Below, piece after piece: positions 17,059-57,964 of a stretch of DNA of 64,000 nucleotides. The notes beneath the pieces are model-generated. The model had not been told where the DNA came from, searched no databases, and saw only the letters and a list, made by a program, of their open reading frames with translations. Source of the stretch: an uncultured Collinsella sp. Its GTDB lineage: Bacteria > Actinomycetota > Coriobacteriia > Coriobacteriales > Coriobacteriaceae. Position numbers and translations under genes: made by a program. The stretch covers positions 68,797 to 132,796 of the forward strand of contig CATXMO010000001.1 of NCBI GenBank assembly GCA_958372075.1, read 5' to 3'. Each line of letters opens with the position of its first letter. Within the stretch, counting starts at the first letter, position 1.

Positions 17059-17059
17059 C

Positions 17060-18030: not shown

Positions 18031-18039
18031 GTTTTGGCA

Positions 18040-22842: not shown

Positions 22843-22877
22843 GTTCGTTCCTCGCTATGGTATTGGCCACGTCGCAC

Positions 22878-23618: not shown

Positions 23619-23691
23619 TGTTCCTTTCCCGTTCTTTAGCACAATGCCGAGAAACACACCCGGCATCGATTCACACATAAGCCACCCCACG

Positions 23692-25251: not shown

Positions 25252-25271
25252 CCCGTACATCCCTAATTTCG

Positions 25272-25721: not shown

Positions 25722-25828
25722 AGGTGCACCCCCTCCGTTCTGCTCTGCTCAGCATCACATTCATATGCCTTTGAGCACCAAAACGGCAGGTGACAAATGT
25801 CTCATATTCATATTTTTGCAGGTAAAAA

Positions 25829-25866
25829 ACCACCACAAAGGTGCCTGTCCCCTTTGTGGTGGTTAG
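25829..25866 (-). terminator. Intrinsic terminator of the LuxR-type regulator gene (CCACCACAAAGG hairpin, copy 2)
   Basis: On the minus strand the 13-bp stem is followed by TTTTTTACC, directly after the stop at 25867. Confidence 0.65.
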
Positions 25867-27453: not shown

Positions 27454-27582
27454 AAAGAACCAATCTCAATATCGAAGCCAAGTTCGAAATGTTGCAAATT
27501 CGACCCCAGCCGTCCGCATGACGCCGCGATTTTGAGCCGCATGACCCAGAAGGGGCGCGCGCAAGCTCCAACTCGGCAAGGA

Positions 27583-27640
27583 GTATCCCCCAACTGCCAC
27601 TCATTTAAGTACGTCCCCAATGAGTACCCAATGAGTAAGC
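27583..27640. repeat. A-unit repeat copy
   Basis: GAGTATCCCCCAACTGCC followed by ACTCATTTAAGTACGTCCCCAATGAGT. Confidence 0.7.
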
Positions 27641-27749
27641 AAAGGGTGCGACGGAATGGCTCCCCTTGGCAGCTTGAAGCCGTCATGCAGGAACCATTCC
27701 GTCGCAGCCTAATGAAAGGGACTGGGTTGTAAATGTTGGAGAAGAGCCG

Positions 27750-29063
27750 TTAGCGCCCGGGGGCCAGGATCACCAGCGCGTCGTGCTCAAAGGGATGCTG
27801 CGCCACGCGCACGGTGCCGTCACCGTTGTCACGGACGGGCAGCTTTGCGATGCGCTTGTCCTCCATGTCGAGGACCGTCGCCGTCCAGCCACGCGCGCCG
27901 TCGAGCTTAAACTTGAGCGCCGTGGTACGCGGCAGGTACGCGACGATGCGATCGCCAACGCGCGCCACACGGATGGACTCGCGCGCGTCGTCGAGGAGCT
28001 CCTGCGCCGGAACCACGGCAAGTGCATCGTCGGCAGCCGTAGCGCCTAGGGCGGCAAGCACGTGCTCGATCGCGCCAAAGTCCCACACACCCGCAAACTG
28101 CAGGCACTCTTGCCAGCGGAAGGGCATGTCAAAGCCCTCGCCCAGGACCGAACCCTGGCTGCGCGATGTTTGCCAGTTCCACACGCCGTGTGCGCCATAG
28201 GTCACGCCGGCACTGGCGCCGGCAAGAATCGACGACCATACGCTCGCGCGGCAATCCTGCGCGGTAAAACGCCAGTAGACGTTGCGCGACGCACCCATCT
28301 GCTCGTAGCAAGGCTCGGAGTTGACCATCGGCTTTTTGGGATAGTTGGCGATAAAGTCCTGCGGCAGACGCCATGCCTCGGGCTGGCCCTCGTAGTTGTG
28401 GCCGGGCTGGAACATATAAAAGTCCAGACGGTCCAAATACTGCGCCGGAATGGTGCGGTTACCGCGGTTGATATGCATGGTGCGCAGTGCCTCGGGCGCG
28501 CGCTTGACGACCTCGTCGAGGGCGTCCTCGTAATAGGCGATCGCCTCGTCGCCGGCAAAGTCGGTATCGCCCGCCACCACGTAGACGGGGTCGAACTCGC
28601 CCAGGTTCTCGACGACGCGGGCAACGTGGGCGCGAACCTCCTCACGCGGCATAATCTCGGCACCGCAACGCTCGGCGATCTTGGCACCCCAGGTACCGGG
28701 CACGTAGTTGCACCACATGAGCACGAGCGCCGGACGAATGCCGTGCTCGACGGCCGCGCGGCACATGGCGGCGGCACGATCCCAATACGCCTGGTTGGGG
28801 CAGGACCAATCAAAGTGCACGCCATCCTCGCTGGCATAGGGCCAAATGCCCAGGTCGGGACAGCAGCGATCCCACTGCGGCAACGTGTTGATCTGCAGCA
28901 CGTTCATGCCCTGCTCGGCACGGCGGGTCAGGTAGTAATCCCAGTCGTTCTCGGCGATGCTCGTAAATGCGCTCCAGCACGTATCGGCAAACCAGAAGAA
29001 CGGTTTGCCCTCGCACAAAAAGCCGTCCTGGCGACCGTTGGCGGTCAGCTTTCCCAAACTCAT
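27750..29063 (-). CDS. DUF4038-containing putative glycoside hydrolase (GH140-like)
   Basis: N-terminal KPFFWFADTCWS resembles the DUF4038/GH140 FFWLGDTAW signature. Start at the MQMSLGK region after a GAAAGGA RBS. Confidence 0.55.
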   Translation of the reverse strand: MSLGKLTANGRQDGFLCEGKPFFWFADTCWSAFTSIAENDWDYYLTRRAEQGMNVLQINTLPQWDRCCPDLGIWPYASEDGVHFDWSCPNQAYWDRAAAMCRAAVEHGIRPALVLMWCNYVPGTWGAKIAERCGAEIMPREEVRAHVARVVENLGEFDPVYVVAGDTDFAGDEAIAYYEDALDEVVKRAPEALRTMHINRGNRTIPAQYLDRLDFYMFQPGHNYEGQPEAWRLPQDFIANYPKKPMVNSEPCYEQMGASRNVYWRFTAQDCRASVWSSILAGASAGVTYGAHGVWNWQTSRSQGSVLGEGFDMPFRWQECLQFAGVWDFGAIEHVLAALGATAADDALAVVPAQELLDDARESIRVARVGDRIVAYLPRTTALKFKLDGARGWTATVLDMEDKRIAKLPVRDNGDGTVRVAQHPFEHDALVILAPGR

Positions 29064-29272
29064 CTGCATGTCCTTTCGTTTGATAAAGGATTTGCGAACC
29101 GCCGGGGGCTTTCGCGATAACCCCGCGCGAAAGCCCCCGGCGCTTGGCAAACCCTCGCGGGCGAATCTCACCCGCCTCCATCAGTCTACCTTGCAAGAAG
29201 GGCCCCGCCGGGCTTACGCCTGACGGGGCCCTGTCGTGTAGGTGAGGTCTTATGCGACCGAACGGTTTGGCC

Positions 29273-30700
29273 TTAGGCCTCCATCTCGGCGAGCTCCTCC
29301 TTGGAGAAGCCGGAGACAAAGACGACGGCAGCGGCGATGACAAAGGAGATTGCCATACCAACGATAGCCCAGACGGTGTTCATCTGGCCACCCTGCAGGT
29401 AGTTGGTGAAGACCAGGAAGTTGGAGGCACCGCCTGCGAGGTAGTAGGTAACCCCCATGAGGCCGGAGAACACAGCGCCGATGGCACCGCCGATGAACAT
29501 GCCAAACATGGTGCGACGGAAGCGCATGAGGATGCCGAAGAGCGCGGGCTCGGTGACGCCGCCGGCGATGGCGGAGATGACGTAACCGATGGCGAGAGAC
29601 TTCTCGTCGGGGTTCTTCATCTTGAGGAAGGCACCGAAGGCGCAGCCCCAGACAGCGGCCATAGCGCAGTTGGTGGAAACGAAGACGAAGGGATCGTAAC
29701 CGGCAGCGATGATCTGAACCTGGGCGAGCAGGATGACGGGCATGTGCATGCCGCAGACCACGAAGAGCTGCCAGAAGGCGCCGAGGACGGCCATGACGAT
29801 CAGGATGCCGATGCCGCCAAGGTCAGCAAGGCCGAAGAGGGCGTTGGCGATCAGTGTACCGATCTCGTTGCCGATCGGAGCGAGGACGATGAAGGCAATG
29901 GGGATCGTGACGATCATGGTGCAGAACGGCGTGAAGACCGTGGAGAGCACGTCGGGCATGACCTTCTTAAAGAACTTCTCGACGAAGTAGAGGACAGGCA
30001 CCGAAAGGATGATCGGCAGGACGGACTGCTGATAGTTGGCAGCAGCGATCTGGATGCCGTAGACGGAGATGATGCCGCCGCCCTCCTGGGTGGCGACGCT
30101 CACCACGGAAGGAGCCATGAGGGCGCCACCGAGCAGCATGCCGAGCACCGGGCTGGCGCCGAGCTTCTTAGCCGCGGCATAACCCAGGTAGATGGGGATA
30201 AAGGTGAACGTGGCCTCGTACAGCGTGGTGTAGAGGAACGTATAGGTCGGGTCGTCGGCCGAGAGCACACCGAGCATGGTGGGGCCGAGGACGGCCGCGA
30301 TGGTACGGAACAGACCGCCGGCCATGAGCAGCGGGATGAGCTGGGTCATGGAGCCCGACAGATAGTCGAGGATGATATTGGGCAGGTTCTTGAGCTCGAA
30401 CTTCTCCTTGGGAGCATCGAGGTTCTCGTTGACGGCCTCACCCTGCTTGACACCGGAGATGGCGACGAACTCGGCGAGCACCTTGGGCACGTTCTGGCCG
30501 ATGATGACCTGGAGCTGGCTGCCGGCAAACTGGCAACCCAGAACACCCTTGACCTTCTTGATCTTCTCCACGTCGGCCTTGCTGTTATCCTTGAGCGTCA
30601 GACGCAGGCGCGTCATGCAGTTGGTGGCAACGGAAACATTCTCCGCACCGCCCACGAGCTCGAGGACATCGGTGGCAATCTGCTTGTTATCTACTGCCAT
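29273..30700 (-). CDS. PTS EIIBC component, glucose/beta-glucoside family (no IIA domain)
   Basis: N-terminal EIIB with CMTRLR, followed by a ~10-TM EIIC. Start at MAVDNK after a GGGAGGGG RBS. Confidence 0.85.
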   Translation of the reverse strand: MAVDNKQIATDVLELVGGAENVSVATNCMTRLRLTLKDNSKADVEKIKKVKGVLGCQFAGSQLQVIIGQNVPKVLAEFVAISGVKQGEAVNENLDAPKEKFELKNLPNIILDYLSGSMTQLIPLLMAGGLFRTIAAVLGPTMLGVLSADDPTYTFLYTTLYEATFTFIPIYLGYAAAKKLGASPVLGMLLGGALMAPSVVSVATQEGGGIISVYGIQIAAANYQQSVLPIILSVPVLYFVEKFFKKVMPDVLSTVFTPFCTMIVTIPIAFIVLAPIGNEIGTLIANALFGLADLGGIGILIVMAVLGAFWQLFVVCGMHMPVILLAQVQIIAAGYDPFVFVSTNCAMAAVWGCAFGAFLKMKNPDEKSLAIGYVISAIAGGVTEPALFGILMRFRRTMFGMFIGGAIGAVFSGLMGVTYYLAGGASNFLVFTNYLQGGQMNTVWAIVGMAISFVIAAAVVFVSGFSKEELAEMEA

Positions 30701-30799
30701 GGGACCCCTCCCCATATCTTCGTGTGCCAGCCCCCTTGGGCTTAGGCACGCCTTTGGCCCGGCGACTATAACCCCTTACGGTTGCCGGACCCTTGGATA

Positions 30800-31140
30800 C
30801 GCTTTTGTAAACAAGGTGTTTACTGAACGTTTACGGGCTTTAGTTTACACGGAGCGCCGAATTTATGGCAATTTTGCCGTCTACAGTCCGGTGAACGGTA
30901 GGAAATCGGGGGTGAACGTATTTGAATGGCGGGAGATGGTCTCTTTGACCCTCTATTGATATATAGCCATTTACGTGGGATTTTATTTTGATGAACACCT
31001 CACTGATCTGTTAACTCATCAACAGAATCCCTGCTAGAAGCTAGTAAACATACGTTTAGTAGTTCACGACGTGTTCAATTTTGCCGTTTACCGAGTTCAT
31101 CTGGTTATTCTTCAATTCTAGATTACACTAAACATGTTTA
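30800..31140. promoter_or_regulatory. AT-rich divergent control region with LacI-type operator-like palindromes
   Basis: GTAAACA-AGG-TGTTTAC at 30807-30823. Half-sites ACGTTTAC and TAGTTTAC nearby. A perfect palindrome CTAAACATGTTTAG at 31127-31140, ~50 nt upstream of the hydrolase start. Confidence 0.5.
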
Positions 31141-31190
31141 GTTTGTATTGCCGCAGATGCCAGGCATTCGCGGCGCAAGGGAGGCAGCTC

Positions 31191-32528
31191 ATGGAACTCA
31201 AATTGTGTACCTACGCAACCGTCACCACCTTGGGCGACTTTGGCCCCTGGATCAGCAAGGTCGTACTCGACCTGCCCTGCACCGTGCGCGCCAACGACAT
31301 CGACGCGAACACCTTCCATATATATGTAGAGCGTCACGAGCGCTCGGGCGATGTTCTGATGCGCAAGGAACGCGGCGCCGACCATGCCGCGCCCTCCGTG
31401 GGTTACATCGACATTCTCGCCGCATATCCGTGCGACGAGAACGGACGTAAGCTCGCCGTGGGCACCCATGTGGCGCTCGAGGTCGCCGAGCAGCGCCTGA
31501 CCAAAAAGATCGAAGGCGGCGTCATGGGCTCGCGCATGCTCGATGACCAGTTGCACATCACGCAGCTCGCGGCTCTTCCCGGCAACGACGGCGACGATCC
31601 CACCTGCGGCCTGGTCTTCGACACCTGCCGTGGCGATATCTGCCCTGCGCTCAAAGGCTGGAGCAACGACACGCAAAAGACCGCCGTCGACGGTATCGCG
31701 CTCGAATACGGCTTCTTTGAGCCCAGCTTTAAGGCCGAGGACTCGGCATGCTTCAACCCCTTTGCGCCCGAGGCCACGGCCGTGCCCCAAAAGGCACCGC
31801 TCGTGGTGTATCTGCACGGCGCCGGCGAGGGCAAGGGCGCCACGCAGGGCGAAGGCGCCACGCGCGCCTATATCGGCAACCGCGTGACGGCCATCAGCCA
31901 GGCGCAGATCCAGCGCTACTTTGGCGGCTTTGCCTGGGTGCTCGTACCGCAGTCGCCCACGTTTTGGATGGACAACGGCGTCGAGCAGCTTGGTCACTCC
32001 AACCAGAGCATCTACTCCCCCGTGCTCAAGGCACTTATCGATGAGTTTGTCGCCGAGCATGCCGACCGCATCGACACCGACCGCATCGTGGTCGCCGGTC
32101 TTTCCAACGGCGGCTTTATGACCCTGCGCCTGTGCGCCGACTACCCCGATTTCTTCGCCGCGGGCCTTCCCTGCTGCGCCCCGTGGTACAACGCCACGGA
32201 CGAGGACGTGGCCGCGCTCGCCAAGACGCCGCTGTGGTTTACGCACTCCAAGGGCGACGAGCTCGTGTCACCGCAACAGACCGTGCTGCCGCTCACGGCG
32301 CGCCTGCGCGATGCCGGCGCCAACGTGCACCTCACCTACTTTAGCCATGTCGAGGACCTGACCGGCGTGTATCGCGAGGCCGACGGCTCGGCCAAGAAGA
32401 CGTTCAACCACGGCGTGTGGATCCACCAATTCAACGACCTGTGTTATCAAGACTTCGACGGGGGCAACGTACTCATCGACGGCGAGCCGGTGGGCTGCTG
32501 GGAGTGGTCGGCCAGGGTCGACCGCTAA
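31191..32528 (+). CDS. Alpha/beta-hydrolase-fold serine hydrolase (esterase or S9-peptidase-like)
   Basis: GLSNGG nucleophile elbow. Start at MELKLC after an AAGGGAGG RBS. Confidence 0.65.
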   Translation: MELKLCTYATVTTLGDFGPWISKVVLDLPCTVRANDIDANTFHIYVERHERSGDVLMRKERGADHAAPSVGYIDILAAYPCDENGRKLAVGTHVALEVAEQRLTKKIEGGVMGSRMLDDQLHITQLAALPGNDGDDPTCGLVFDTCRGDICPALKGWSNDTQKTAVDGIALEYGFFEPSFKAEDSACFNPFAPEATAVPQKAPLVVYLHGAGEGKGATQGEGATRAYIGNRVTAISQAQIQRYFGGFAWVLVPQSPTFWMDNGVEQLGHSNQSIYSPVLKALIDEFVAEHADRIDTDRIVVAGLSNGGFMTLRLCADYPDFFAAGLPCCAPWYNATDEDVAALAKTPLWFTHSKGDELVSPQQTVLPLTARLRDAGANVHLTYFSHVEDLTGVYREADGSAKKTFNHGVWIHQFNDLCYQDFDGGNVLIDGEPVGCWEWSARVDR

Positions 32529-32540
32529 GCCCTCCCATCG

Positions 32541-32661
32541 CGGGGACCGGGGTTTAGTCTTGCAAACGTCCTCGGGCATGCATGGGCTGGCGCTTTGCGC
32601 TTCGCGCTGCGCCTGCCCATGCCCCCTGCGGAATGTTTGCAAGACTAAACCCCAGTCCCCG
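32541..32661. repeat. Large imperfect hairpin (~27-bp outer stem with one mismatch and nested inner palindromes)
   Basis: CGGGGACCGGGGTTTAGTCTTGCAAAC pairs with GTTTGCAAGACTAAACCCCAGTCCCCG. The loop contains GCATGGGC/GCCCATGC and GGCGC/GCGCC pairs. Confidence 0.6.
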
Positions 32662-32790
32662 CTGCGTTGACGTTGCTGTGATCCTGGCCGGGCGCTTCCG
32701 GCAGCACGCCGGGTCGGTGGCGATGGGGGCGTGGGTCCCGTCTTGCCTTGCGCGTAACTGGCTGAATTGATTTTGATTGGAGCTGTTCCT

Positions 32791-34302
32791 ATGTCCCAGA
32801 ATTTGACTCGGGTGATTGTTACCACTGATATGGAAGTCGATGATATGAACTCGCTCATTCATTTGGCTCTGTATCTTAATGTGCTTGATGTTCAGGCTGT
32901 GGCGTATACGGCTTCGCAGTATCACTTTCTTGGGGATGGGGTTCATACGCTGGGCGAGGTGAATTCGCATTGGCGGACCAAAGGGCGTCGCTCTTACGAG
33001 TGGGCTGTTGTGCCTCATGAGCCTGATCCGCTGGCCGGGGTGCTTTGTGAGTATCGTCCGTTTCCCGAACATTGGATCGAAAGCCTCTGGAGTAATGAAT
33101 ATGCCCAGGCTTGGCCGCAGCTGCAGGCAAATGCGGCCGCTGCCGGTGAGCCGCCGTTTCCCACGCCTGCCCAGATGGTCGAGCGCACCTTTGTGGGAAA
33201 TGTTACCTTTGAGGGTGATGTGACTGAGGAAACTGAGGGGTCCCGCGTAATTGCGCAGGCGATTTTGGATGATGATCCGTGTACGTTATGGCTGCTCAGC
33301 TGGGGTGGCATGAACACCATCGTTCGCGCCCTCATGAGCATTGCCGAGCGCTATCGCGCCACGCCCGAATGGCCTGCTGTGCAGCAGCGGGTCTATCAGA
33401 AGGTGCGCGTGATGGGCGTCGCGGACGGCGTAGGGCAGGACAACTCATGGCTCGACCATGGGCGTGAGCTCTTTCCCGAGCTCGTCTTTTGGCGTGTGCC
33501 CTATATGTATGGCAACTATTTCGACGCCAAAACAGCTCAGCCCGATACGCTGCCGCTGTTTAAGGCTCCTTGGCCTGAGCGGAATCTCACGCAGGGCAAC
33601 GGACCCCTCATGGCACGCTATATGCTCTATGGCGATGGTAAGGTCTACGAAAACGAGCCCGAGCGCTTTCAGTTTGGCAAGCATGCCCGTCTGGATTGGG
33701 GCCTAGAAGGCAGGCCCGCGGTGCAGTTTGAGCGCGGCGACTTTATGGCCGAAGGCGACAGCATGACCTATATTCCGCTGCTTCCGTTTGGCCTGCGCGG
33801 TATCGACGACCGCGACTTCGATACGCTGCTGGGCCGCATGTTTTTTGATGGGCATCCCGATGCGAACGCGCCCGCCGGTTTTGCCTCCATCGGCACGCCC
33901 GCAGACGACAATCTCAATCCCTACCTGCGTGCCTATCAGGAAGACTTTGCCGCCCGCGCGCAATGGTGTGCCCATGATCCGGCAGCCTGCTCGCATCCGG
34001 CACATGTTGTCGAGGTCACGGCCGACCGCAGCGCCACAGCCGGCGAGCGCGTCGACCTTACAGCGACCATCGTCGACCCCGACGGCAAGGGCTTCGATGT
34101 GCATTGGGATGTCGCCGTGGACCCGTCGAGCTATGCAGGCGCCCAGGATCTGTCGCTGTGGCAAGAATGCACGGTAGACACCGCTTTCATCGTGCCCGCC
34201 GACGCGCGGCCCGGCGACCGCCTTGTGCTCACCCTTACCGTGCAGACGCGCGCCGAGCGCCCCTGCAGCCGCTACGCCCAGGTCGCCGTAACCGTGGCAT
34301 AG
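32791..34302 (+). CDS. DUF1593-like protein (nucleoside-hydrolase-like N-terminal domain)
   Basis: N-terminal VIVTTDMEVDDMNSLIHLALY resembles the DUF1593 / inosine-uridine nucleoside hydrolase-like aspartate cluster. Confidence 0.5.
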   Translation: MSQNLTRVIVTTDMEVDDMNSLIHLALYLNVLDVQAVAYTASQYHFLGDGVHTLGEVNSHWRTKGRRSYEWAVVPHEPDPLAGVLCEYRPFPEHWIESLWSNEYAQAWPQLQANAAAAGEPPFPTPAQMVERTFVGNVTFEGDVTEETEGSRVIAQAILDDDPCTLWLLSWGGMNTIVRALMSIAERYRATPEWPAVQQRVYQKVRVMGVADGVGQDNSWLDHGRELFPELVFWRVPYMYGNYFDAKTAQPDTLPLFKAPWPERNLTQGNGPLMARYMLYGDGKVYENEPERFQFGKHARLDWGLEGRPAVQFERGDFMAEGDSMTYIPLLPFGLRGIDDRDFDTLLGRMFFDGHPDANAPAGFASIGTPADDNLNPYLRAYQEDFAARAQWCAHDPAACSHPAHVVEVTADRSATAGERVDLTATIVDPDGKGFDVHWDVAVDPSSYAGAQDLSLWQECTVDTAFIVPADARPGDRLVLTLTVQTRAERPCSRYAQVAVTVA

Positions 34303-34344
34303 CAAGGGCGGCGCCCACATTCGGCAGCCGCCGCATTCGACAAA

Positions 34345-34531
34345 GAGTGTCCCCAAGTGCCAAACGAGCGGGGATTTTTGGACACCCAAACAACGAGAGT
34401 GGACAATCTCCCACTTTGAGCCCACAAGCAGGCCAAAAATGGGAGATTATCCACTCTCATTCTGCGGGTACTCATTGGGGACGTACTTAAATGAGTAGTT
34501 TCACTCATTTAAGTGCGTCCCCAATGAGTAG
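34345..34531. repeat. Composite repeat: GAGTGTCCCCAAGTGCC, B-element copy 2 (34363-34468) and an inverted pair of A-units
   Basis: The B stem is GAGAGTGGACAATCTCCC / GGGAGATTATCCACTCTC. A reverse-complement A-unit and a forward A-unit follow. Confidence 0.8.
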
Positions 34532-34650
34532 GAAAAATGGGCCATGTGTCCCAGTTGTGGAGACTCGTTGAGCCGTCTGGGTATCGTGAAAGATCGCGCG
34601 CTCGCCCATCATCAAAAGTGACACACGCTACCTGTTGATGGGAGGCAGCC

Positions 34651-41249: not shown

Positions 41250-43222
41250 TCACCCGCCCTCGGCATCAAGACGATCATGCGCAGCTGGCCGGGCTCGCCC
41301 TCAAGGCGGTATGCCACGTTGCGCCCTTGCAGAGCGCTTTCGAGCTCTTGCGCAGCGGGCGTCTGAGAAAGATCTTCATCATCGTTGGAAAAAAGCGTGG
41401 CGCGCAGCTCGACACTGCATCGGTCATGATCGCCCAAGTGATACATAAGCGCCGGATGGTCGGTGGTGTAGGCAAAAAACGCAAAGTCATACACGCAGTC
41501 GTACAGGGCGCTTACCGTACTGGCGTGCATCGGGCGCCGTATGGCGATAATCGAGGCGCAATCGATATCGATGGTGCGCAGGTCGCTTGCGAGCTCGTTG
41601 GCAATGAGCTGAATGCGGTCGCGATCAAAACCGCTCTCACCGTGCTGTGCCAACGTGAGCGACCCTTTGCGCTTGCAATAGGCGACGAGCATCTTGGCGC
41701 GCTGCAGCATGCGGTAACGCTCGTGCGAAGACGCCTCGTCGGTCAACGGCGGCAGCGAACTCAGCAGGTCGTACATCCCTTCGAGCGCGCGGGCAAGTGC
41801 TTGGTCCACGTCTTGGACCAGCAAGGTCTCGGCCTCTTGATCTGCCAGGTGCGTCTTAAGGTCGTAGTCGGCGGCGAGCAGCTCGTTTTGACGCTGCAGT
41901 TCCATGCGACGATGTGCCAGTTCACGGTTAAGCTCGTTGAGATCCGACACGTCTTGGGCAAGCAGGGCCGATCCGCCCAGCAGTGGAAAGGCACGGTACA
42001 CCACATCGGGATCGGACGCCACAGCAAAGGCATGGGCGTGGCCGTGCTCCTGGGTCCGCAACTCCTCGCGCACGCCTACCGGCATTGGCTTTGACGCCGG
42101 CGTGGCATAGACCTCCTGCAGGTCGCGCGTTAGAACTTTGAGGTCGAGCGGCAAGGTGTCGAAGATGCCGGCGATGTCGTGATACGACGGAATGACACCG
42201 CAATCGAGACAGATTTCCATCGCCACCACGCACAGGACGCAATAGACGAGCGAAAAGTTGAGCCTCCATGCCCAGGGCACGCGCAACGCATACGAGACGG
42301 CAAAGAATGCGCCACCCAGCAGTACGAGCGCCGCCGTGCCCGAGAAACGCTGGATGCGAAAGGACGAGGACCGGCCCACCAGGATAAAAAAGGCCACAAA
42401 GTTAAAGGCCGTCCACACTAAGACAGCGAAATAACCCCAGCCGTACGTGTAATCGTTGCTCCAGGTGTCGCTTGCACGGTCAAAGTGGAATACCTGCCGG
42501 TGGAAATCGTTGGTGAGCACAAAACCGATAAGTAGGATGGCCACGACCCACAGGATGCTGCGATAGCGACGGCCCGCACGGTGTTGTTCCAGCCCCGCAA
42601 GGCGCAGGCCGCACAGCTGGTAGAGCAGCGGAATGAGCGTCATGGGCACGTAGTACAGGTACCACAGCACGGTGGCATAGAACGGTGTGAACGACTTGTA
42701 TTTGAGGATGACCTCAATCATCCAGAGGGCGCAGATGGTGGCGACGGCAACAAGGCGGCGGCGCAACACATAGTCCAAACAGCGTAGATAGACCGATACA
42801 CCCCAGATCGAAAATATAATTGCGGCGACAAGCAACGGGAGAGAGCTCGAGTGGACGAGCGCATCCACGACCTCTTCGGACACCTCGCTATAGGCGGGCA
42901 CGGCGTTAGAAAGTTTGGGGTCGAAGGCGAACAGCGCCGGCAAGACTGCCAAAACCATGAGGAACAGCGCGGTGATGGCGCCGGCGATAGCAAAGACGCG
43001 GTGACGGTACACCCGATGTGTTATGCCAACAAGGAATCGCGGCATGGCGAAGAGCCTGCCGCCCCTGGGATCCGCCACGGGTGCGGATCGGGCGGCCGCG
43101 TGGCCGATATGTCGCTCGCAGGTACCCATAGTGCTTTTAGTGTACCGACAGGCGGGCCCAAAAAGCGGGCCACATGTCCCAAAATCCGCCGACGGCAAAG
43201 GGTGTCCCCAGGGGCCACTCAT
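41246..43222 (-). CDS. Polytopic membrane protein with a cytoplasmic coiled-coil and no recognisable kinase catalytic motifs, first gene of the two-component operon
   Basis: Eight or more TM helices, then a coiled-coil (ELNRELAHRRMELQRQNELL). No H-box His and no ATPase boxes. The likely start is the internal ATG at 43045 (MPRFLVG). Overlaps the kinase gene by 4 nt. Confidence 0.5.
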   Translation of the reverse strand: MSGPWGHPLPSADFGTCGPLFGPACRYTKSTMGTCERHIGHAAARSAPVADPRGGRLFAMPRFLVGITHRVYRHRVFAIAGAITALFLMVLAVLPALFAFDPKLSNAVPAYSEVSEEVVDALVHSSSLPLLVAAIIFSIWGVSVYLRCLDYVLRRRLVAVATICALWMIEVILKYKSFTPFYATVLWYLYYVPMTLIPLLYQLCGLRLAGLEQHRAGRRYRSILWVVAILLIGFVLTNDFHRQVFHFDRASDTWSNDYTYGWGYFAVLVWTAFNFVAFFILVGRSSSFRIQRFSGTAALVLLGGAFFAVSYALRVPWAWRLNFSLVYCVLCVVAMEICLDCGVIPSYHDIAGIFDTLPLDLKVLTRDLQEVYATPASKPMPVGVREELRTQEHGHAHAFAVASDPDVVYRAFPLLGGSALLAQDVSDLNELNRELAHRRMELQRQNELLAADYDLKTHLADQEAETLLVQDVDQALARALEGMYDLLSSLPPLTDEASSHERYRMLQRAKMLVAYCKRKGSLTLAQHGESGFDRDRIQLIANELASDLRTIDIDCASIIAIRRPMHASTVSALYDCVYDFAFFAYTTDHPALMYHLGDHDRCSVELRATLFSNDDEDLSQTPAAQELESALQGRNVAYRLEGEPGQLRMIVLMPRAGE

Positions 43223-43425
43223 TTAAGTACGTCCCCAATGAGTGGACCAGCGACTAGTCGTTTAAGAACGTCCCCAATGACTAAGACAAAACGAGCGAGG
43301 ATTTTTGGACGCCCAAATGGCGAGAGTGGATAATCTCCCACTTTGAGCCCACAAACAGGCTAAAAACGGGAGATTATCCACTCTCATTCTGCGGGCACTC
43401 ATTTAAGTACGTCCCCAATGAGTGC
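43201..43425. repeat. Composite repeat: GGTGTCCCCAGGGGCC, two A-units, B-element copy 3 (43288-43395) and a terminal A-unit
   Basis: The B stem is GAGAGTGGATAATCTCCC / GGGAGATTATCCACTCTC (perfect). The A-units read ACTCATTTAAGTACGTCCCCAATGAGT. Confidence 0.8.
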
Positions 43426-43509
43426 TTTCACTTCTTTTAACAAAACGCCCGGCGGGCATTAACTGCTCGCCGGGCGTTTTGGTTAGGAGGCTATGGTTGT
43501 TGGGAAGCC

Positions 43510-44943
<1,434 letters not shown>

Positions 44944-45093
44944 TCAATCCTTTCGCACGCTGTTTGTCGTGGTTTCAGTATCCCCGTAAGCAGCGCGCTA
45001 CTCAACGGCAACGACGCAGGCCGACACTTCTTTTCGCACACGGCGGCCCGGCAGCCGCCCCTGCCTGACACTTTCTGATACCGCCGCCCCAAA

Positions 45094-45127
45094 CCACCAC
45101 AAAGGGGACAGGCACCTTTGTGGTGGT
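45094..45127. repeat. CCACCACAAAGG hairpin, copy 3 (inverted orientation)
   Basis: CCACCACAAAGG-GGACAGGCA-CCTTTGTGGTGG. Confidence 0.7.
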
Positions 45128-45138
45128 TGGGGACGGTT

Positions 45139-45275
45139 TGTCTCGATCTGTAACAGGTAGGCAGCCAAAACCGGGCTTGGTGTTACAGATCGAGATTTTC
45201 GGGCAGCCCCCCGCAGTTTGTCTAAATCTGTAACAGGTAGAGACGATTTAGCCCGCTAGATGTTACAAATCGAGA
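45139..45275. repeat. Tandem pair of ~57-nt hairpins sharing the core TCTGTAACAGGTAG
   Basis: Hairpin 1: TCTCGATCTGTAACA / TGTTACAGATCGAGA (perfect 15 bp) followed by TTTTCGGG. Hairpin 2: GTCTAAATCTGTAACA / TGTTACAAATCGAGAC (imperfect). Confidence 0.6.
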
Positions 45276-45284
45276 CGGAAGATG

Positions 45285-45929
45285 CTAGTCACAGGCGATG
45301 TCGAGGTTCTTGCCGACGAGGCCCACGTAGCCGCCTTCGGCTGCCTTGGGGCTGTCGGCGTGGCAGAGGACCCACTTGTCGGCCTTCCAGTAGCAGTAGC
45401 TGTCGCCGACCGCGGGCATGTCGGCTGCGGCCTCGGGGCGCGGACCATTGGTGCCGGCGGGCAACGCAACCATTACCTGGAAGCCGCCGTCGTCGACCAT
45501 GCAGGGCGTGTAGTGGAGCGTGGTGTTGAAGACTTCGACGACCGTACCCGCCGGCACGCGGAACGCCTTGACGCACGCGGTGTCGAGCTTACCGTCCTCG
45601 ATCTCCCAGCGATGCGCCACGAGCAGGATAAAGTCGCGGGCGCCCAGGTTAAACTCGCTGGCGCGGTGATACTCCAGGCAGTTGAGGCGTGTGTTGTGGC
45701 CGTTGCACCAACCGAGCTGGAAAGGGCGGCCGCCAAACATGAGAAAGCCCAATTTGTCGGCATCCTTGACGCCCTCGAGCTCCGGCGCGCTTGCCACGTA
45801 CTTGCTGCCCTCGGGGACGGGCGTGGCAGAGAGCGCCTCGAGTACGGGCGACGTGAGCTCGGACGGAACGTTATCCCAAACGTTGCCATAGGATTTGAAC
45901 TCGGGATCGTTGACAGAGTAGATATGCAT
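45285..45929 (-). CDS. Cupin-like small conserved protein (possibly DUF4867-like)
   Basis: Start at MHIYSV after an ACAGGAG RBS. A His-containing beta-rich core. Lies at the distal end of the sugar operon. Confidence 0.35.
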   Translation of the reverse strand: MHIYSVNDPEFKSYGNVWDNVPSELTSPVLEALSATPVPEGSKYVASAPELEGVKDADKLGFLMFGGRPFQLGWCNGHNTRLNCLEYHRASEFNLGARDFILLVAHRWEIEDGKLDTACVKAFRVPAGTVVEVFNTTLHYTPCMVDDGGFQVMVALPAGTNGPRPEAAADMPAVGDSYCYWKADKWVLCHADSPKAAEGGYVGLVGKNLDIACD

Positions 45930-46073
45930 GTTCACTCCTGTTCGTTTATGTAACAGTACGAACATTCTAGAACAAACATGAGCGATTTTGAACGCCCATC
46001 CCGACCACTCAACAAAAAGGCGCCCCCGCATAAGCGAAGGCGCCCAATGCGCGCGTTTTGGACGGTAAAGCCC

Positions 46074-46562
46074 TTACGCCTGCTGATAGTGCAGGTGCTT
46101 CTCGTCGATATCAGCCAGGTCGCGGTCGAAGTAACGGCGCGCGAGCCAGTTTGCCATGGGGAGGTTCTGGTCCAGGTAGTTGCCGCACTCCTCGGGAGCG
46201 GCTCCGGGGACATCGCCCTTAAAGCCAGCGACAAACTCGAACAGCTCACGCACGAGCGGCAGAATCTCCTCGCTCGTCAGCTCACCAAAGACAACCAGGT
46301 AAAAGCCCGTGCGGCAGCCCATGGGCCCAAAGTAGACGATACGGCTCGACCACTCAGCATGGTTGCGCAAGAACGTGGCACCCAGGTGCTCGATGGTGTG
46401 GCACTCGGCCGTGTTCATGACCGGCTCCTTATTGGGCGTGGTCAGGCGCAGGTCAAAGGTGGTGACGGCAGCGCCGGTCGCCGGATCGCGGTCGATGCGG
46501 CTCACGTACACGCCGGGCTCAAGCAGCAGATGGTCAACGGAAAAACTCGCGATGCGCTCCAT
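46074..46562 (-). CDS. luxS: S-ribosylhomocysteine lyase LuxS
   Basis: HTIEHL metal-binding motif and the conserved C (GCRTGFY). 162 aa. Confidence 0.88.
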   Translation of the reverse strand: MERIASFSVDHLLLEPGVYVSRIDRDPATGAAVTTFDLRLTTPNKEPVMNTAECHTIEHLGATFLRNHAEWSSRIVYFGPMGCRTGFYLVVFGELTSEEILPLVRELFEFVAGFKGDVPGAAPEECGNYLDQNLPMANWLARRYFDRDLADIDEKHLHYQQA

Positions 46563-46635
46563 GGCAGATCCTCTCGGTAGTCAATTTGGGACGGGGCTCT
46601 TTCAGCTGGTTCGAATGGTCGCACCAATCATACCA

Positions 46636-46676
46636 GTCAAAAAAGCCCCGTCCCAAATGAGCTACCCGGGACGGGG
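46636..46676 (-). terminator. Intrinsic terminator of the FGGY kinase gene (GGGACGGGG family)
   Basis: Minus strand: CCCCGTCCC-GGGTAGCTCATTT-GGGACGGGG followed by CTTTTTTGA. Additional CCCCGTCCC/GGGACGGGG arms at 46583-46712 allow alternative long hairpins. Confidence 0.55.
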
Positions 46677-46715
46677 ACCGAATGATTATTTAATCCCCGT
46701 CCCAGAAAAATCATT

Positions 46716-48206
46716 CTAGGCAGTGTACGAGATGGTGGCGGCTACGGCATGACGCCAGCCGGCGATCTTTTTGGCTCGCTCGTCAGCGGGCATGGTGGGC
46801 TCCACGATGCCGCGGGCGCCATAGACGTCGACGACATCGCGCGCGTACATGCCCAGCGCAATGCCGCAGGCCCAAGCCGCACCCAGACCGCTCATCTCGT
46901 CATTGCTCGCAATGCGGATGGGCGAGCCGACCAAGTCGCTCTCAAACTGCATCAGATACGCATCGTGCGTGGGGCCGCCGTCAACGCGAAGCTCGGCAAG
47001 CGCCGCGCCCGAATCCTCGACCATCGCATCGATGACGTCAAAGATTTGATAGGCGATCGACTCGTCGGCGGCCTTCACGAACTCCGCGCGACCCGTGGTG
47101 CGTGTCATGCCAAAGACGCAGCCCTCGGCGTCACTCGCCCAGTGCGGCGCGCCCAAACCGGTAAACGCCGGCACAAAGTAGACGCGGCTCGCCGGATTGG
47201 CGGCGTAGCACAGGTCGGTAACTTCCTCGGGGTTATTGATGAGCTCCAAATCGTCGCGCAGCCAGGTCTTGACGGCGCCGGCGTAGCTCACGTTGCCCTC
47301 GAGCACATACTCGGTCACGCCGTTCATACGCCACGCAAGCGAGCTCGAAAGCCCGTGCGAGCTGGCAACGAACTCGTCACCGACGTTCATCATGACCGAG
47401 CTGCCGGTGCCATAGGTCGCCTTGGCCATGCCGCGGCTATGGCAGCCCTGGGCAAACAAGGCGGCATGGCTGTCGCCGAGCACGCCGTGAATGGGCACGG
47501 GCGCCGGCAAAAAGCCGCCCAGGTTCGTCATGCCGAACAGGCCATCGGAATCGGTCACCTGCGGCAGGCAAGCCGAATCGACGCCAAAGGCCTCGCACAC
47601 CGGCTCGCTCCAGCAGCCACGGCGCAGGTCAAAGAGCTGCGTGCGGCTGGCATTGGACCAGTCGCAGCGAAACTCCGCGCCGCCCGTGAGCGTCCAGACC
47701 ACCCAGGCATCGATGGTGCCCAGACACAGTTCGCCTGCCGCCGCGGCCTCGGCAGCCGTGGGAACGTTCACGAGAATCCAAGCCATCTTGCCCGCCGGAT
47801 AATAGGGCGAGAGTACCAGACCCGTCGTGTCGCGCACCAGCTCGGCCACACCCTCGCGCGCGGCCAGCTCGTCGCACAGCTCGCGGGCGCGGGCGCATTG
47901 CCACACCACGGCGTCGCACAGCGGCTCGCCCGTCGTGCGCCTCCAGGCAACGGTGGTCTCGCGCTGGTTGGAAATGCCGATGCCGGCGATGTCGGCCGGA
48001 TCGACCCCAGTCTCCTCCACCACGGCGCGCGCCACGGCCAGCACGTTGGCGGCGATCTCGGCAGGATCATGGCTCACCCAGCCGGCCTCGTTCACAATCT
48101 GGCGATGTGAGCGGTCGGCACGATGAATCAGATGGCCGCCCTCGTCCACCAGCAGTGCCTTGGTGCCCTGCGTGGATTGATCGATTCCGATGATGTATTT
48201 GCTCAT
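46716..48206 (-). CDS. FGGY-family carbohydrate kinase
   Basis: N-terminal IGIDQSTQGTKALL. FGGY N- and C-domain pattern. 496 aa. Confidence 0.8.
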   Translation of the reverse strand: MSKYIIGIDQSTQGTKALLVDEGGHLIHRADRSHRQIVNEAGWVSHDPAEIAANVLAVARAVVEETGVDPADIAGIGISNQRETTVAWRRTTGEPLCDAVVWQCARARELCDELAAREGVAELVRDTTGLVLSPYYPAGKMAWILVNVPTAAEAAAAGELCLGTIDAWVVWTLTGGAEFRCDWSNASRTQLFDLRRGCWSEPVCEAFGVDSACLPQVTDSDGLFGMTNLGGFLPAPVPIHGVLGDSHAALFAQGCHSRGMAKATYGTGSSVMMNVGDEFVASSHGLSSSLAWRMNGVTEYVLEGNVSYAGAVKTWLRDDLELINNPEEVTDLCYAANPASRVYFVPAFTGLGAPHWASDAEGCVFGMTRTTGRAEFVKAADESIAYQIFDVIDAMVEDSGAALAELRVDGGPTHDAYLMQFESDLVGSPIRIASNDEMSGLGAAWACGIALGMYARDVVDVYGARGIVEPTMPADERAKKIAGWRHAVAATISYTA

Positions 48207-48380
48207 GTACTCTCCTGTCTCCCCCGTCGATTCAAAAACTAAAACCCGACGGACAAGGAGCGAGCGGCCGTCAAGTGCCGCAGATTGCCGTGAAAGAGGA
48301 GCGCCGCGTGCTCTGTGTACGCAAGCGACGGTTTGAACGGCAAGGTGCGGTGCTTGGCGGCCGCGCAGCGTCTGTTTCTA

Positions 48381-49319
48381 CTAGTTGCCGAGGAACTCGG
48401 CAACGGTCTTGGCGATTCCGGCACCCGTCAGGCCGTAGTGCGCAAAGACCTCGGGGCTCGTGCCGGTGATGACCGGCGCGTCGGGCAGGCTCAGGCACTT
48501 GACCGGACGCGGGCAATGCTCGCCCACCACCTGCGCGACCATGGAACCCAGGCCGCCGAAGGGGCTGTGCTCCTCGACGGTCACGACGGCGCGCGTGGCA
48601 CCGGCAGCCTCGATCACGGCCTCGGCATCGAGCGGCTTGACGCAGTACATATCGAGCACCGTTGCCGAAATGCCCTGCTCGGCCAGCAGATCGGCGGCAT
48701 CCACGGCATGGCGGACCATCTCGCCGGTGGCGACGAGCGTCACATCGGTGCCGCGACGCACCCAAGTGGCGCGGTCCATCTGGAACGGACACTCGTCCTC
48801 GGTATACACGTCCTCGACCGGGTTGCGCCCCACGCGGATGTAGGCCGGCTTGTTATCGTTGACCAGGGCGCGCACGAGCTCGGCGGTCTGGAAGCGGTCG
48901 CTCGGCAGATACACGCGCATGTTGGGAATCGCGCTCATGGCGGCGATATCCTGCGCGGAGTGATGGCTCATGCCCAAGGCGCCGTAGGACACGCCGCCCG
49001 AGATGCCGATGAGCTTGACGTTGGTGTTGGAGTACGAGACGTCGACCTTGCACTGCTCATACGAGCGCGTGGTCACAAAGGACGCCGGCGAGGCGGCCCA
49101 GGCCTTCTTGCCGCACGAAGCCATGCCGGCGGCGATGCTCACCAGGTCCTGCTCGGCAATGCCGACCTCAATGGACTGCTGGGGATACTGATCGAAGAAC
49201 GGCGTGAGCGATGCGGAGCCGCGGGAGTCGGAGCACAGGACGACGATGTCCTTATCGGTCTCGGCGGCCTCGAGCAGCGTGTCGCAGATAACCTTGCGGT
49301 TGGCGATCTTGTTAGCCAT
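48381..49319 (-). CDS. Transketolase, C-terminal subunit (split transketolase)
   Basis: Pyrimidine-binding and C-terminal domains. Start at MANKIAN after an AAGGAGG RBS. Confidence 0.85.
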   Translation of the reverse strand: MANKIANRKVICDTLLEAAETDKDIVVLCSDSRGSASLTPFFDQYPQQSIEVGIAEQDLVSIAAGMASCGKKAWAASPASFVTTRSYEQCKVDVSYSNTNVKLIGISGGVSYGALGMSHHSAQDIAAMSAIPNMRVYLPSDRFQTAELVRALVNDNKPAYIRVGRNPVEDVYTEDECPFQMDRATWVRRGTDVTLVATGEMVRHAVDAADLLAEQGISATVLDMYCVKPLDAEAVIEAAGATRAVVTVEEHSPFGGLGSMVAQVVGEHCPRPVKCLSLPDAPVITGTSPEVFAHYGLTGAGIAKTVAEFLGN

Positions 49320-50148
49320 TGATAGCCTCCTTATGGGCAGCGAAATCGGCGATGATCTGGGCATATTCCTCGTCGTTGGGCAGGTGATGATGCCAGGCGG
49401 CCTTGTCCTCCATAACCGGCGAGCCGTAGCCCTTCACCGTGTTGAGGATGATGACCGTGGGCTTTCCGCAGGTCTCGGCGGCCAACGTCAGTGCGGCATC
49501 GATGGCTTGGACGTCGTTGCCCGGAATGGAGAGCACGTTCCAGCCGAAGGCGGCCCAGCGCTCCTCCTGCGAATCCTGCTTCATGACGTCCTCGGTGCTG
49601 CCACTGATCTGCAGGCGGTTGCGGTCCACGAGCGCGCACAGGTTATCGAGCTGGTAGTTACCGCCGCTCATGGCGCCTTCCCAGACCGAGCCCTCGGCAA
49701 GCTCGCCGTCGCCCATAATGGTGTAGACGCGGTAGTCGCGGCCGTCCATCTTGCCGGCGAGTGCCATGCCCACGGCCACGGGCAGGCCGTGGCCCAGCGA
49801 GCCGGAGTTCATCTCGATGCCCTTGAGCTTGTTGTTGGGGTGACCGATGTAGGGGCTGCCGAACTTGGAGAAGCGGGCCTTGACGTCGTCGAGGTCCAGA
49901 TAGCCCTCGTGGCACAGCACCGCGTAGTAGGCCTCCATGGCGTGGCCCTTAGAGAGCACAAAGCGGTCACGGTTGGGGTCGTCGACGGTCTCGGGCGAAA
50001 TGTTGAGGTGGTTGGCATAGAGGGTCATGAGGGCGTCGATCACCGACATGTCGCCACCGATGTGGCCGCCGGCGCCGGCCATGATGATATCGACGCAATC
50101 GCGGCGAAGATCCCAACGCAGGGACTCAAGCTCTTCGATAGTTGCCAT
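49312..50148 (-). CDS. Transketolase, N-terminal (TPP-binding) subunit
   Basis: GDGELAEG thiamine-diphosphate-binding motif. 278 aa. Overlaps the downstream C-terminal subunit gene. Confidence 0.85.
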   Translation of the reverse strand: MATIEELESLRWDLRRDCVDIIMAGAGGHIGGDMSVIDALMTLYANHLNISPETVDDPNRDRFVLSKGHAMEAYYAVLCHEGYLDLDDVKARFSKFGSPYIGHPNNKLKGIEMNSGSLGHGLPVAVGMALAGKMDGRDYRVYTIMGDGELAEGSVWEGAMSGGNYQLDNLCALVDRNRLQISGSTEDVMKQDSQEERWAAFGWNVLSIPGNDVQAIDAALTLAAETCGKPTVIILNTVKGYGSPVMEDKAAWHHHLPNDEEYAQIIADFAAHKEAING

Positions 50149-52820: not shown

Positions 52821-52983
52821 TGTTCCCCCTAGCAACGGCCGTGGCGGAGCATCGCGACTCGATGGCTCGGCAACTAAACGACCGCAAATTCAATCTAAAC
52901 AGAATAGTAAATGTTTATGAGCTAGTTTAGCCTGTTGTCAAGCAAAGCGGTACGACTATTCCCCCAACGGGCGCATTTGCTCG

Positions 52984-53098
52984 GTAGCTCATTTGGGACG
53001 GGGCTATTTTGACTACCTACGCATAGTTTTGGAGGCGGTGGGGGCAGACGCCAAGTAGCTAAAAAGCCCCGTCCCAAATCGACTACATGGGGCGGGGC
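52984..53098. repeat. GGGACGGGG-family hairpin pair. The distal copy acts as the minus-strand terminator of the nucleoside hydrolase gene
   Basis: CATTTGGGACGGGGCT (52990-53005) pairs with AGCCCCGTCCCAAATC (53064-53079). On the minus strand CCCCGCCCC...GGGACGGGG is followed by CTTTTTAGC. Confidence 0.5.
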
Positions 53099-57486: not shown

Positions 57487-57509
57487 CCTGCAGCGCAAAC
57501 TTCCCACAT

Positions 57510-57547
57510 CCGGAGGGGGTGCCTGCCACGGCAGGCACCCCCTCCGG
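57510..57547. repeat. Perfect 18-bp-stem hairpin downstream of the acyltransferase gene
   Basis: CCGGAGGGGGTGCCTGCC-ACG-GGCAGGCACCCCCTCCGG. No U-tract follows. Confidence 0.6.
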
Positions 57548-57553
57548 CAGTTA

Positions 57554-57596
57554 GGGACGTTCCTTATGTGCCGGCACCTAGGGACACTCCTGGCAC
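57554..57596. repeat. Reverse-complement copy of the GGAACGTCCC/GTGTCCC repeat module
   Basis: GGGACGTTCCTTATGTGCCGGCACCTAGGGACACTCCTGGCAC is the reverse complement of the module at 9067-9110. Confidence 0.65.
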
Positions 57597-57726
57597 AGCC
57601 GAGGAACGCCCTCCTTGCGACCGAATTCTGGGCGCCTCGCCACCCCGAGCGTTGTTTCCAAGCCCCACATCCGCAGCAAACAACCCAAAATCACTCTTTT
57701 CGAGCCGACTCCAAGAGGTCGTGGAC

Positions 57727-57938
57727 AAAAAGGGGCAAATATGAGTACTGTTACCATTTTAGTAGCAGGCAAAACCACCCAAAATGACGTCCGAGCGACC
57801 CCTACAACCCCCTAAAGCAGCCAACCTGACTGGTTTAAGACATATTGGAGCCAATTTTAATGAACATACTATCGGCTATGTCCATTATCTTCTTGGGTGT
57901 AAATGCTATTCACTTAGCAACAGTACTCATATTTGGCA
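57727..57938. mobile_element. AT-rich ~210-bp islet bounded by perfect 16-bp terminal inverted repeats (MITE-like)
   Basis: AAATATGAGTACTGTT (57728-57743) and AACAGTACTCATATTT (57919-57934). The interior is visibly AT-rich relative to the flanks. Contains small ORFs. Confidence 0.45.
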
Positions 57939-57964
57939 TTTTTTGTCCACTGCCATATAACTAA
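57860..57964 (+). CDS. Candidate 34-aa hydrophobic peptide (MNILSAMSIIFLGVNAIHLATVLIFGIFCPLPYN)
   Basis: ORF located within and at the 3' edge of the AT-rich islet (57727-57938). GGAG lies ~11 nt upstream. One predicted TM helix. Speculative. Confidence 0.2.
   Translation: MNILSAMSIIFLGVNAIHLATVLIFGIFCPLPYN

Follow-up and report, generated by a model that had tools for sequence, protein, structure and literature searches.

Hairpin units in the window

The window analysed in this study is a 64,000-nt stretch of DNA from an uncultured Collinsella sp. (GCA_958372075.1, contig CATXMO010000001.1, positions 68,797-132,796), with a G+C content of ~61%. The genus Collinsella is abundant in the gut, and its strain diversity is extreme. 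Between the genes of the window, we identified short hairpin units that share a GTCCCC loop end and that form mosaic arrays together with the longer palindromic modules B (~115 nt) and C (~170 nt). A first-pass annotation of the window had proposed two separate repeated modules, an A unit and a "companion", at seven loci. Each of these loci was read, and each holds units, far above chance; all seven lie between genes, as judged from Pfam matches and from the choice of open reading frames (ORFs) by G+C content at third codon positions (GC3). The two modules, however, proved to be a single architecture whose stems differ by subfamily.

Each unit consists of a 5′ arm, a loop of 13-19 nt that closes on GTCCCC, and a 3′ arm that begins 0-3 nt past GTCCCC, with a stem of 5-10 bp whose sequence depends on the subfamily. 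The 5′ and 3′ arms are CACTCATT and AATGAGTG in subfamily A, ACTAGTCRTT and AATGACTAGT in subfamily a, GGCAC and GTGCC in subfamily S, CCACCACAAA and TTTGTGGTGG in subfamily T, and GGTGCAAA and TTTGCACC in a rarer subfamily. The loop end always reads (C/T)GTCCCC, the preceding base being C for A, a and S units and T for s units and the T type. In A, a and S loops, the sequence ahead of GTCCCC is rich in purines and contains AAG (TAAGNAC for A and a units, AAAAGGAAC for S units). The s type is a degenerate, unpaired form, RAGRGTGTCCC, located mostly just before a hairpin unit; wherever both could be measured in the window, the distance from the s core to the hairpin-unit core is 27 nt. Hybrid units also occur, whose 5′ and 3′ arms come from different subfamilies.

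The sequence ACTCATTTAAGTACGTCCCCAATGAGT has five matches at no more than one mismatch in the window (27599, 34470(-), 34503, 43217 and 43397), where none is expected by chance. The companion core GGAACGTCCCCAAGTGCCG has five matches at no more than three mismatches against 0.04 expected, and the common octamer GTCCCCAA occurs 15 times against 1.7 expected. An independent repeat scan of the window recovered a seven-copy A family, three copies of the 115-nt B element, and the companion module at 9065-9112 and 61500-61574, with its reverse complement at 57545-57591. Additionally, a covariance model built from related copies gave 12 strand-specific matches in the window at E<0.05. For comparison, we used sampled Collinsella DNA (885 kb plus 930 kb, ~1.8 Mb in total) that is enriched for unit-flanking sequence; its loci are designated by L-numbers, and many of them are orthologs of window segments (77-99% identity).

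At 9066-9112(+), an s unit (AAGGAGTGTCCCCAACTGCC) is followed by an S hairpin (CGGCA / GAAAAGGAACGTCCCCAAG / TGCCG), which together form the companion module of the first-pass annotation. Two adjoining units are located at 17958-18016(+): 17960-17987 is a variant of the a type whose core is GCCCC, and 17984-18016 (E 3e-8) is an A/a hybrid. The cluster at 27575-27636(+) comprises an s unit (an ATCCCCC variant), an A unit at 27599-27625 and an 11-nt stretch in which the 3′ arm is partly duplicated (CCCAATGAGTA). Immediately 5′ of a B element, an s unit (GACAAAGAGTGTCCCCAAGTGCC) occupies 34339-34361(+). An inverted A pair, 34470-34496(-) and 34503-34529(+), separated by the spacer AGTTTC, forms a 60-nt hairpin of -28 kcal/mol at 34467-34532. 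S (43194-43216), A (43217-43243) and a (43253-43283) units follow one another at 43194-43285(+), and a further A unit lies 3′ of a B element at 43394-43426(+). A diverged companion module (S and s, with GTCCCT cores) is located at 57545-57591(-), within an insert of ~180 nt that is missing from L105. The array at 61438-61632 starts with a(-) at 61438-61470, s(-) at ~61470-61490, and s-like and S(+) units at 61500-61547, and continues with overlapping S copies at 61527-61574, an s-like copy at 61581-61600 and an a/A(+) unit at 61600-61632.

The T-type hairpin at 19192-19223(+) (CCACCACAAA / GGTGCCTGTCCC / TTTGTGGTGG) has the same loop end and a model E-value of 0.017. A second T-type copy, at 25830-25862(+), was detected by both the repeat scan and the covariance model, and a third, at 45094-45126(-), is the exact reverse complement of the second. 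Further relatives are a half copy at 22128 and the A-like halves at 46576-46666 and 52983-53014, where intergenic palindromes contain the A-like half CCGTCCCAAATGAGCTACC. Two other intergenic palindromes were observed, one at 32540-32662 with the termini GCGGGGAC...GTCCCCGC, and one at 8927-9042 with 51-nt arms, which is missing from L042.

Modules B and C

The three B elements of the window are all on the + strand. The one at 17059-17173 is a long hairpin (GAGCGTGGATAATCTCCCAC...GGGAGATTATCCACGCTC) with a half copy at 17927-17952; the one at 34362-34476 has a core, 34371-34463, that is missing from L056; and the one at 43289-43403 lies between a and A units. This 115-nt long hairpin has ~20 copies in the sampled loci, usually with an A or a unit after it, and both the repeat scan and these sampled copies bear out the earlier observation that units flank B elements.

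C elements are located at 9129-9300(+), as a long imperfect palindrome with a terminal hairpin at 9273-9300 and S units preceding it on the same strand, and at 18019-18189(+), where the last base overlaps the stop codon of the gene at 18189-18956(-). The ~170-nt imperfect palindrome with its terminal 12-bp hairpin (GTTACGCGGTTTGGTAAAACCGCGTAAC) is present at no fewer than 25 distinct Collinsella sites, which include L014, L018, L040, L088, L163 and L189 besides the window pair. C nearly always has a GTCCCC unit ahead of it on the same strand, and its end reaches or overlaps the stop codon of a gene in convergent orientation. A search of the whole window against Rfam gave no match at gathering thresholds, and relaxed scans of 43150-43500 and 8850-9330 returned only sub-threshold generic hairpins, with no Rfam match for the C element. 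A tRNA or tmRNA origin of the units found no support.

These modules bear on a transcriptional explanation, according to which the units would be parts of multicopy small-RNA genes, with a promoter in B driving a transcript through the A hairpin, whose C-rich loop would act as a seed, into the structured C element. The left part of B contains a sigma-70-like TGGACN-17-GAyAAT match in each window copy, and the order B, A, C on one strand recurs in L063, L090, L119, L175, L205 and L220. Additionally, C shows at least two Watson-Crick types in 25 of its 59 predicted pairs, and G.U outnumbers A.C by 28 to 4 on the GTCCCC strand. Nevertheless, A and a units are mostly solitary, with neither B nor C, the -35 part is missing from many sampled B copies, the promoter match is weak (9/12 positions), and the G.U excess may descend from a few founder copies. 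We consider the small-RNA explanation quite improbable.

An invariant loop on variable stems

Of the 567 GTCCCC sites in 885 kb of Collinsella DNA, 195 are enclosed by a stem of 7 bp or more, while the corresponding proportion for five control hexamers is at most 3%. Among 154 stem/loop variants, the stems are different and the loop end is identical, and GTCCCC is the sole invariant block in an alignment of 39 sequences. All ten stem pairs (10/10) have changes on both sides, and the covariation score was 0.495, compared with 0.19 for shuffled sequences and no more than 0.21 when the partners were slid, although selection required the inner five pairs, which restricts the unbiased part of this test to the outer pairs and to the types of pair. 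When sequences were selected on the loop alone, the stem length was 8 bp, and pair 6 was G-C in 133 cases, C-G in 33 and C.C in 13. The combination of an invariant loop and a freely varying stem is an unusual design of this Collinsella repeat family.

As DNA, lone A, a and S units fold weakly (-4.7 to -6.3 kcal/mol) and inverted pairs fold strongly (-21 to -28 kcal/mol). The 38-nt T-type hairpin at 25830 has a folding energy of -15 kcal/mol and is flanked by A/T tracts. In contrast to intrinsic terminators, the A, a and S units are weak, have a loop of at least 13 nt and lack a T run; the T-type copies qualify in part by their energy and flanking tracts.

Genomic context and density

Hairpin units are intergenic in 248 of 288 cases. 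Their density is 2.95/kb in convergent gaps, 1.9/kb in tandem gaps and 0.98/kb in divergent gaps, and the arrays sit mainly behind gene 3′ ends. Both orientations are found, with 111 units antisense and 58 sense to the upstream gene (~2:1, with counts that are not independent). This bias is probably due to the fact that C ends at the stop codon of a convergent gene. No replication-strand bias of the units was found. The commonest arrangement is a solitary a unit (54 of 156 clusters), and the arrays mix S, A/a, B and C in variable order. Neighbouring units are mostly co-oriented; a< a> doublets were counted seven times, and the exact 40-nt inverted doublet corresponds to ~6 distinct sites among 128 matches.

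When units are counted strictly, with an exact GTCCCC and 6 bp or more of stem, the window contains 12 of them in 9 clusters, i.e., 0.19/kb, which becomes ~0.4/kb when degenerate copies are included. The other Collinsella loci carry 0.078 units/kb after removal of the cluster that brought in each locus. The load of repetitive extragenic palindromic (REP) sequences in E. coli is roughly 0.1/kb. The unit density is similar to REP loads elsewhere, and the window is locally rich; the earlier claim that the density far exceeds that of REP sequences and bacterial interspersed mosaic elements (BIMEs) is overstated.

Two other statements of the first-pass annotation on gene context were correct. One copy supplies the stop codon of the deacetylase gene at 61628-63034(-): the TAG, read as CTA at 61628-61630 on the + strand, lies inside the unit at 61600-61632. 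The ORFs 17995-18216 and 61486-61698, described as spurious, exist and lack coding-type GC3, and a GC3-based gene finder passes them over.

Spread and variation among strains

A scan with TTTAAGNNCGTCCCCAATGA over one genome per species gave no fewer than 120 stretches from genome contigs, almost all of them labelled Collinsella or Coriobacteriaceae, so the motif extends well beyond the window and the repeat family is widespread in Collinsella. Three matches came from metagenome-assembled genomes (MAGs) of other taxa, L019, L033 and L076 (Sodaliphilus, Acutalibacteraceae, Methanobrevibacter smithii). L033 and window 43390-50045 share 92-95% identity, and the unit-bearing contigs in MAGs of unrelated taxa are probably binning errors. 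A phage origin was considered and rejected, the single viral-contig match being apparently at a prophage/host junction. We found no published description of this Collinsella repeat family, and the papers on REP-associated tyrosine transposases (RAYTs) contain no actinobacterial case; the GTCCCC-loop family has apparently not been described before. To our knowledge, REP-type repeats are poorly documented in Actinobacteria.

Copies are polymorphic, not invariant, at orthologous loci of related genomes. One A unit of the window is missing from L001 and L002, and tandem copy number differs in two pairs of loci, L032/L117 and L044/L099. Between window 34470-34529 and L032, the arms are identical and the loop is reversed. 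The 3′ arm together with part of the core (CCCAATGACTA or CCCAATGAGTA) has been duplicated repeatedly, and deletions stop beside the core, as in L018 compared with L051 and L099. Relative to L085, L110 has a 69-nt s-S insert with GTCCCCAATG at both edges. At some sites the whole array has been replaced, i.e., at 8.9-9.1 kb between the window and L042 and L058, and at 57.5 and 61.4 kb between the window and L105, which has 31 nt where the window has 61443-61583. Local turnover of the arrays is thus rapid: units are duplicated in tandem, loops flip between identical arms, arms are exchanged and sequence is deleted. Such polymorphisms rearrange the arrays locally and do not demonstrate transposition.

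The orthologous A unit at 27599 is identical at 27/27 positions in L096 and L103, while the flanking gene is 77-80% identical, which points to homogenisation or selection. Selection is the core of a second explanation, in which a Collinsella protein would read the GTCCCC displayed by the hairpin (GGGGAC on the opposite strand) and the units would be host sites, kept by selection and homogenised by gene conversion. The reader could be an RNA binder associated with 3′ untranslated regions or terminators, or a nucleoid or replication factor. A loop block that is invariant over unrelated stems, the full conservation of the unit at 27599 next to diverged flanks, the enrichment behind gene 3′ ends, the excess of antisense units and the resemblance of T-type copies to bidirectional terminators would all be expected of such sites. 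Nevertheless, comparable loci show either orientation, close strains differ in array content at the same site, the A, a and S hairpins fold weakly as DNA and have no T run, and near-identical copies at many unrelated loci would still require a copying mechanism. We regard host-selected sites as unlikely.

Copying and mobility

Our preferred reading, in which our confidence is evenly balanced, is that the units constitute a Collinsella superfamily of short REP/BIME-like (BOX-like) intergenic palindromic hairpin repeats. The presence of near-identical copies at many unrelated loci requires a copying process. By analogy with RAYT and IS200-type HUH enzymes, which act on REP sequences, a trans-acting protein would recognise the hairpin and its GTCCCC loop, and a copy-and-paste process acting on the folded single strand would have carried the copies to over 100 unrelated loci. 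Once in place, the arrays would evolve by slippage, template switching and recombination, and effects on the host, such as hairpins at 3′ ends, the supply of stop codons and recombination hot spots, would be by-products.

Several results weigh against the REP/BIME-like reading and its copying process. We found no target-site duplications around 24 independent solitary copies, nor a common flanking motif beyond the unit, and a systematic search of 315 unit clusters yielded no clean empty sites; the "empty" alleles retain half-units or have the GTCCCCAATG motif at their bounds. Pfam analysis of the window genes revealed no transposase, recombinase, integrase or HUH protein. A phmmer search with E. 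coli RayT found no homolog in 1.8 Mb of Collinsella DNA, with a query so insensitive that it misses the IS608 TnpA in PDB. Because of this insensitivity, four PDB-verified transposases of the IS200/IS605 type were combined into a Y1 profile, which detected only a single ordinary IS200 (L175) in the sampled Collinsella DNA, with ends unrelated to the units. Inverted doublets of the REPIN type (paired REP sequences forming a hairpin) are rare and solitary units are dominant. Additionally, all the rearrangements seen could come from slippage or recombination without a dedicated enzyme, and the conserved loop, together with an orthologous copy conserved above its flanks, would also fit a host-selected site.

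The first-pass annotation had suggested an active or recently active mobile family. The units are indeed dispersed, mosaic and polymorphic; the lack of target-site duplications around the solitary copies and of clean empty sites among the clusters leaves its transposition part unsupported. Its proposed search for a mobilising gene likewise gave no transposase in the window and, with the insensitive RayT query, no RAYT in the 1.8 Mb.

The IS200-type element of L175 (145-909; Y1_Tnp, E 2e-38) is inserted into a C element at its apical loop; the corresponding empty site is L119 6090-6270. P0017, which is 90% identical to the L175 element, was found in eight metagenome samples, always in the same unit-free context. 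These contexts indicate that Y1 transposases exist in the gene pool and that none is linked to the units. Only five genes have units on both sides, and none of them is recurrent or mobile. Two further candidates were discarded. An IS110-family element (DEDD_Tnp_IS110 and Transposase_20; L103 4217-6091) lies ~150 bp from an S-A-B-A array, outside the units, and a metagenome scan for the REPIN form with the exact doublet returned mostly one orthologous locus from many samples.

Classical miniature inverted-repeat transposable elements (MITEs), i.e., internally deleted copies of an insertion sequence (IS) with a DDE transposase, were also considered. The units are short, palindromic, high-copy and intergenic, and a genuine MITE-like element is present in the same window, a low-G+C element of 230 bp at 57721-57950 with 47-bp terminal inverted repeats, which is missing from L105. 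The units, however, are only 27-35 nt long, their 24 independent solitary copies lack target-site duplications, and no IS with unit-like ends was seen in the 1.8 Mb. Their arms vary and their loop is conserved, which is the opposite of terminal inverted repeat conservation. A MITE origin is essentially excluded.

Islands and neighbouring insertions

Units are located at the edges of a strain-specific island, an arrangement that not all islands share. The 6.9-kb island at 27637-34340 has an A unit at one edge and an s unit at the other, and it encodes an apiosidase-like hydrolase, a phosphotransferase system (PTS) EIIBC, an esterase and a Sde182-like protein. It is missing from L096, L113, L084 and L068, which have S-A-S(-a) and join 27636 to 34505. 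The 3.8-kb segment at 22079-25863 contains four ORFs without a Pfam match and has a half and a full T hairpin at its edges. It is missing from L090, L096, L113 and L084, and the allele that was read, L090, has an unrelated 155 nt instead. We had considered the loss of this segment by recombination between T hairpins and rejected it, since the island-less L090 allele is unrelated sequence with no common unit.

In another explanation, the units would be integron-like or other site-specific recombination sites, between which gene islands would be inserted with a crossover at GTCCCC. The absence of the 6.9-kb island from four loci that retain units, the GTCCCCAATG motif at both sides of the 69-nt L110 insert, the hybrid units that join arms of two types and the deletions that stop beside the motif would agree with such a process. 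Nevertheless, no integrase or recombinase is nearby, the islands carry several genes on both strands, the segment 22079-25863 is replaced in L090 by sequence that shares no unit with it, some hybrid breakpoints fall on the 5′ side of the loop, and GTCCCCAATGA is merely the longest stretch common to the subfamilies. We judge this recombination-site explanation very unlikely.

In a further proposal, which we consider improbable, the GTCCCC hairpins would be the recognition and cleavage sites of a putative non-RAYT hairpin-reading enzyme that copies units to new loci and recombines arrays at or beside GTC|CCC. The action of such an enzyme would produce the hybrid units, the 3′-arm duplications with CCCAATGACTA, the deletions ending at the motif and the islands between units.

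Other strain-specific segments were observed near the arrays. The 7.2-kb segment at 10750-17956 contains genes for a glycoside hydrolase family 1 (GH1) glucosidase, an AraC regulator, a GH106-like protein and an RpiR regulator, as well as an XRE gene; L058 has 118 nt instead, and parts of the segment are missing from L042. The XRE gene (17201-17878) encodes an XRE-type helix-turn-helix protein whose C-terminal part weakly matches a desulfoferrodoxin-like Pfam family. It is flanked by direct repeats of 26 nt, the half-B motifs at 17060-17085 and 17927-17952, is missing from L090, L042 and L119, and is found elsewhere solely in orthologous contexts. The insert of ~180 bp that is missing from L105 spans 57495-57676, has GCAGC at both sides, and contains a terminator-like hairpin and the diverged S/s units. 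Finally, the paralogous GH1 beta-glucosidase genes at 10790-12376 and 43510-44940, with 71-83% DNA identity in the repeat segments found, account for several long direct repeats in the repeat scan.

Comparison with known repeat systems

The units resemble the REP/BIME and REPIN-RAYT systems of Enterobacteria and Pseudomonas in being short imperfect palindromes with, by extrapolation, approximately one hundred or more copies per genome. Like REP/BIME sequences, they are extragenic, enriched at gene 3′ ends, present in both orientations and chained with other motifs as mosaics; their position and content vary among strains, and they serve as sites of insertion or rearrangement. Whereas REP sequences have a long conserved stem with a GTAG/CGTC head at its foot, the Collinsella units lack such a head; their conserved block is in the loop, their 8-bp stems are short and subfamily-specific, and their host is an actinobacterium. 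Unlike REPINs, their main form is the solitary unit and not the inverted doublet. A single-copy RAYT gene flanked by repeats, as in REPIN-RAYT systems, was seen neither among the window genes nor, with the insensitive RayT query and the Y1 profile, in the sampled 1.8 Mb. Unlike BIMEs, the arrays do not alternate regularly in orientation, as their units are mostly co-oriented and variable in order.

The pneumococcal BOX elements (boxA-boxB-boxC) are similar in having a Gram-positive host and a few module types in variable number that are strongly folding and intergenic. We know of no transposase of their own for BOX elements. No sequence relationship between BOX and the Collinsella units is known, in a comparison that concerns architecture only; the module order of Collinsella is looser (S, A/a, B, A/a, C, with inversions), and its smallest module usually stands alone. 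Modules C and B resemble the ~127-bp enterobacterial repetitive intergenic consensus or intergenic repeat unit (ERIC/IRU) elements of Enterobacteria in being long imperfect intergenic palindromes by stop codons, with arms that co-vary between subfamilies. Nevertheless, their sequence is unrelated to ERIC/IRU, and C nearly always follows a GTCCCC unit on the same strand.

Integron attC sites are likewise folded hairpins of variable sequence with a short conserved block, located at cassette boundaries. The Collinsella units, however, lack the GTTRRRY/RYYYAAC core, have no integrase in the window and are dispersed instead of forming a single array, and their "cassettes" comprise several genes on both strands, unlike integron cassettes. 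The ends of IS200/IS605 elements and of their non-autonomous derivatives, the palindrome-associated transposable elements (PATEs), are also hairpins that single-strand HUH transposases would read, but the ends of the L175 IS200 share no similarity with the units, which show no pairing of left and right ends.

Implications

The dense, fast-changing repeats at operon boundaries affect assembly and binning. They also provide strain-typing markers, and the family marks at least one site where a strain-specific sugar-utilisation island has been gained or lost. If there is no reader protein, the units would be ordinary intergenic palindromic repeats, and the main practical value of recognising them would be to stop spurious ORF calls over repeats. 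Nevertheless, the invariant loop on a free stem hints at a reader protein unlike the RAYT/GTAG paradigm, for which a hairpin oligonucleotide would be a concrete bait. If the putative enzyme acting at GTC|CCC exists, it would represent a new loop-specified mobile or recombination system in a gut actinobacterium.

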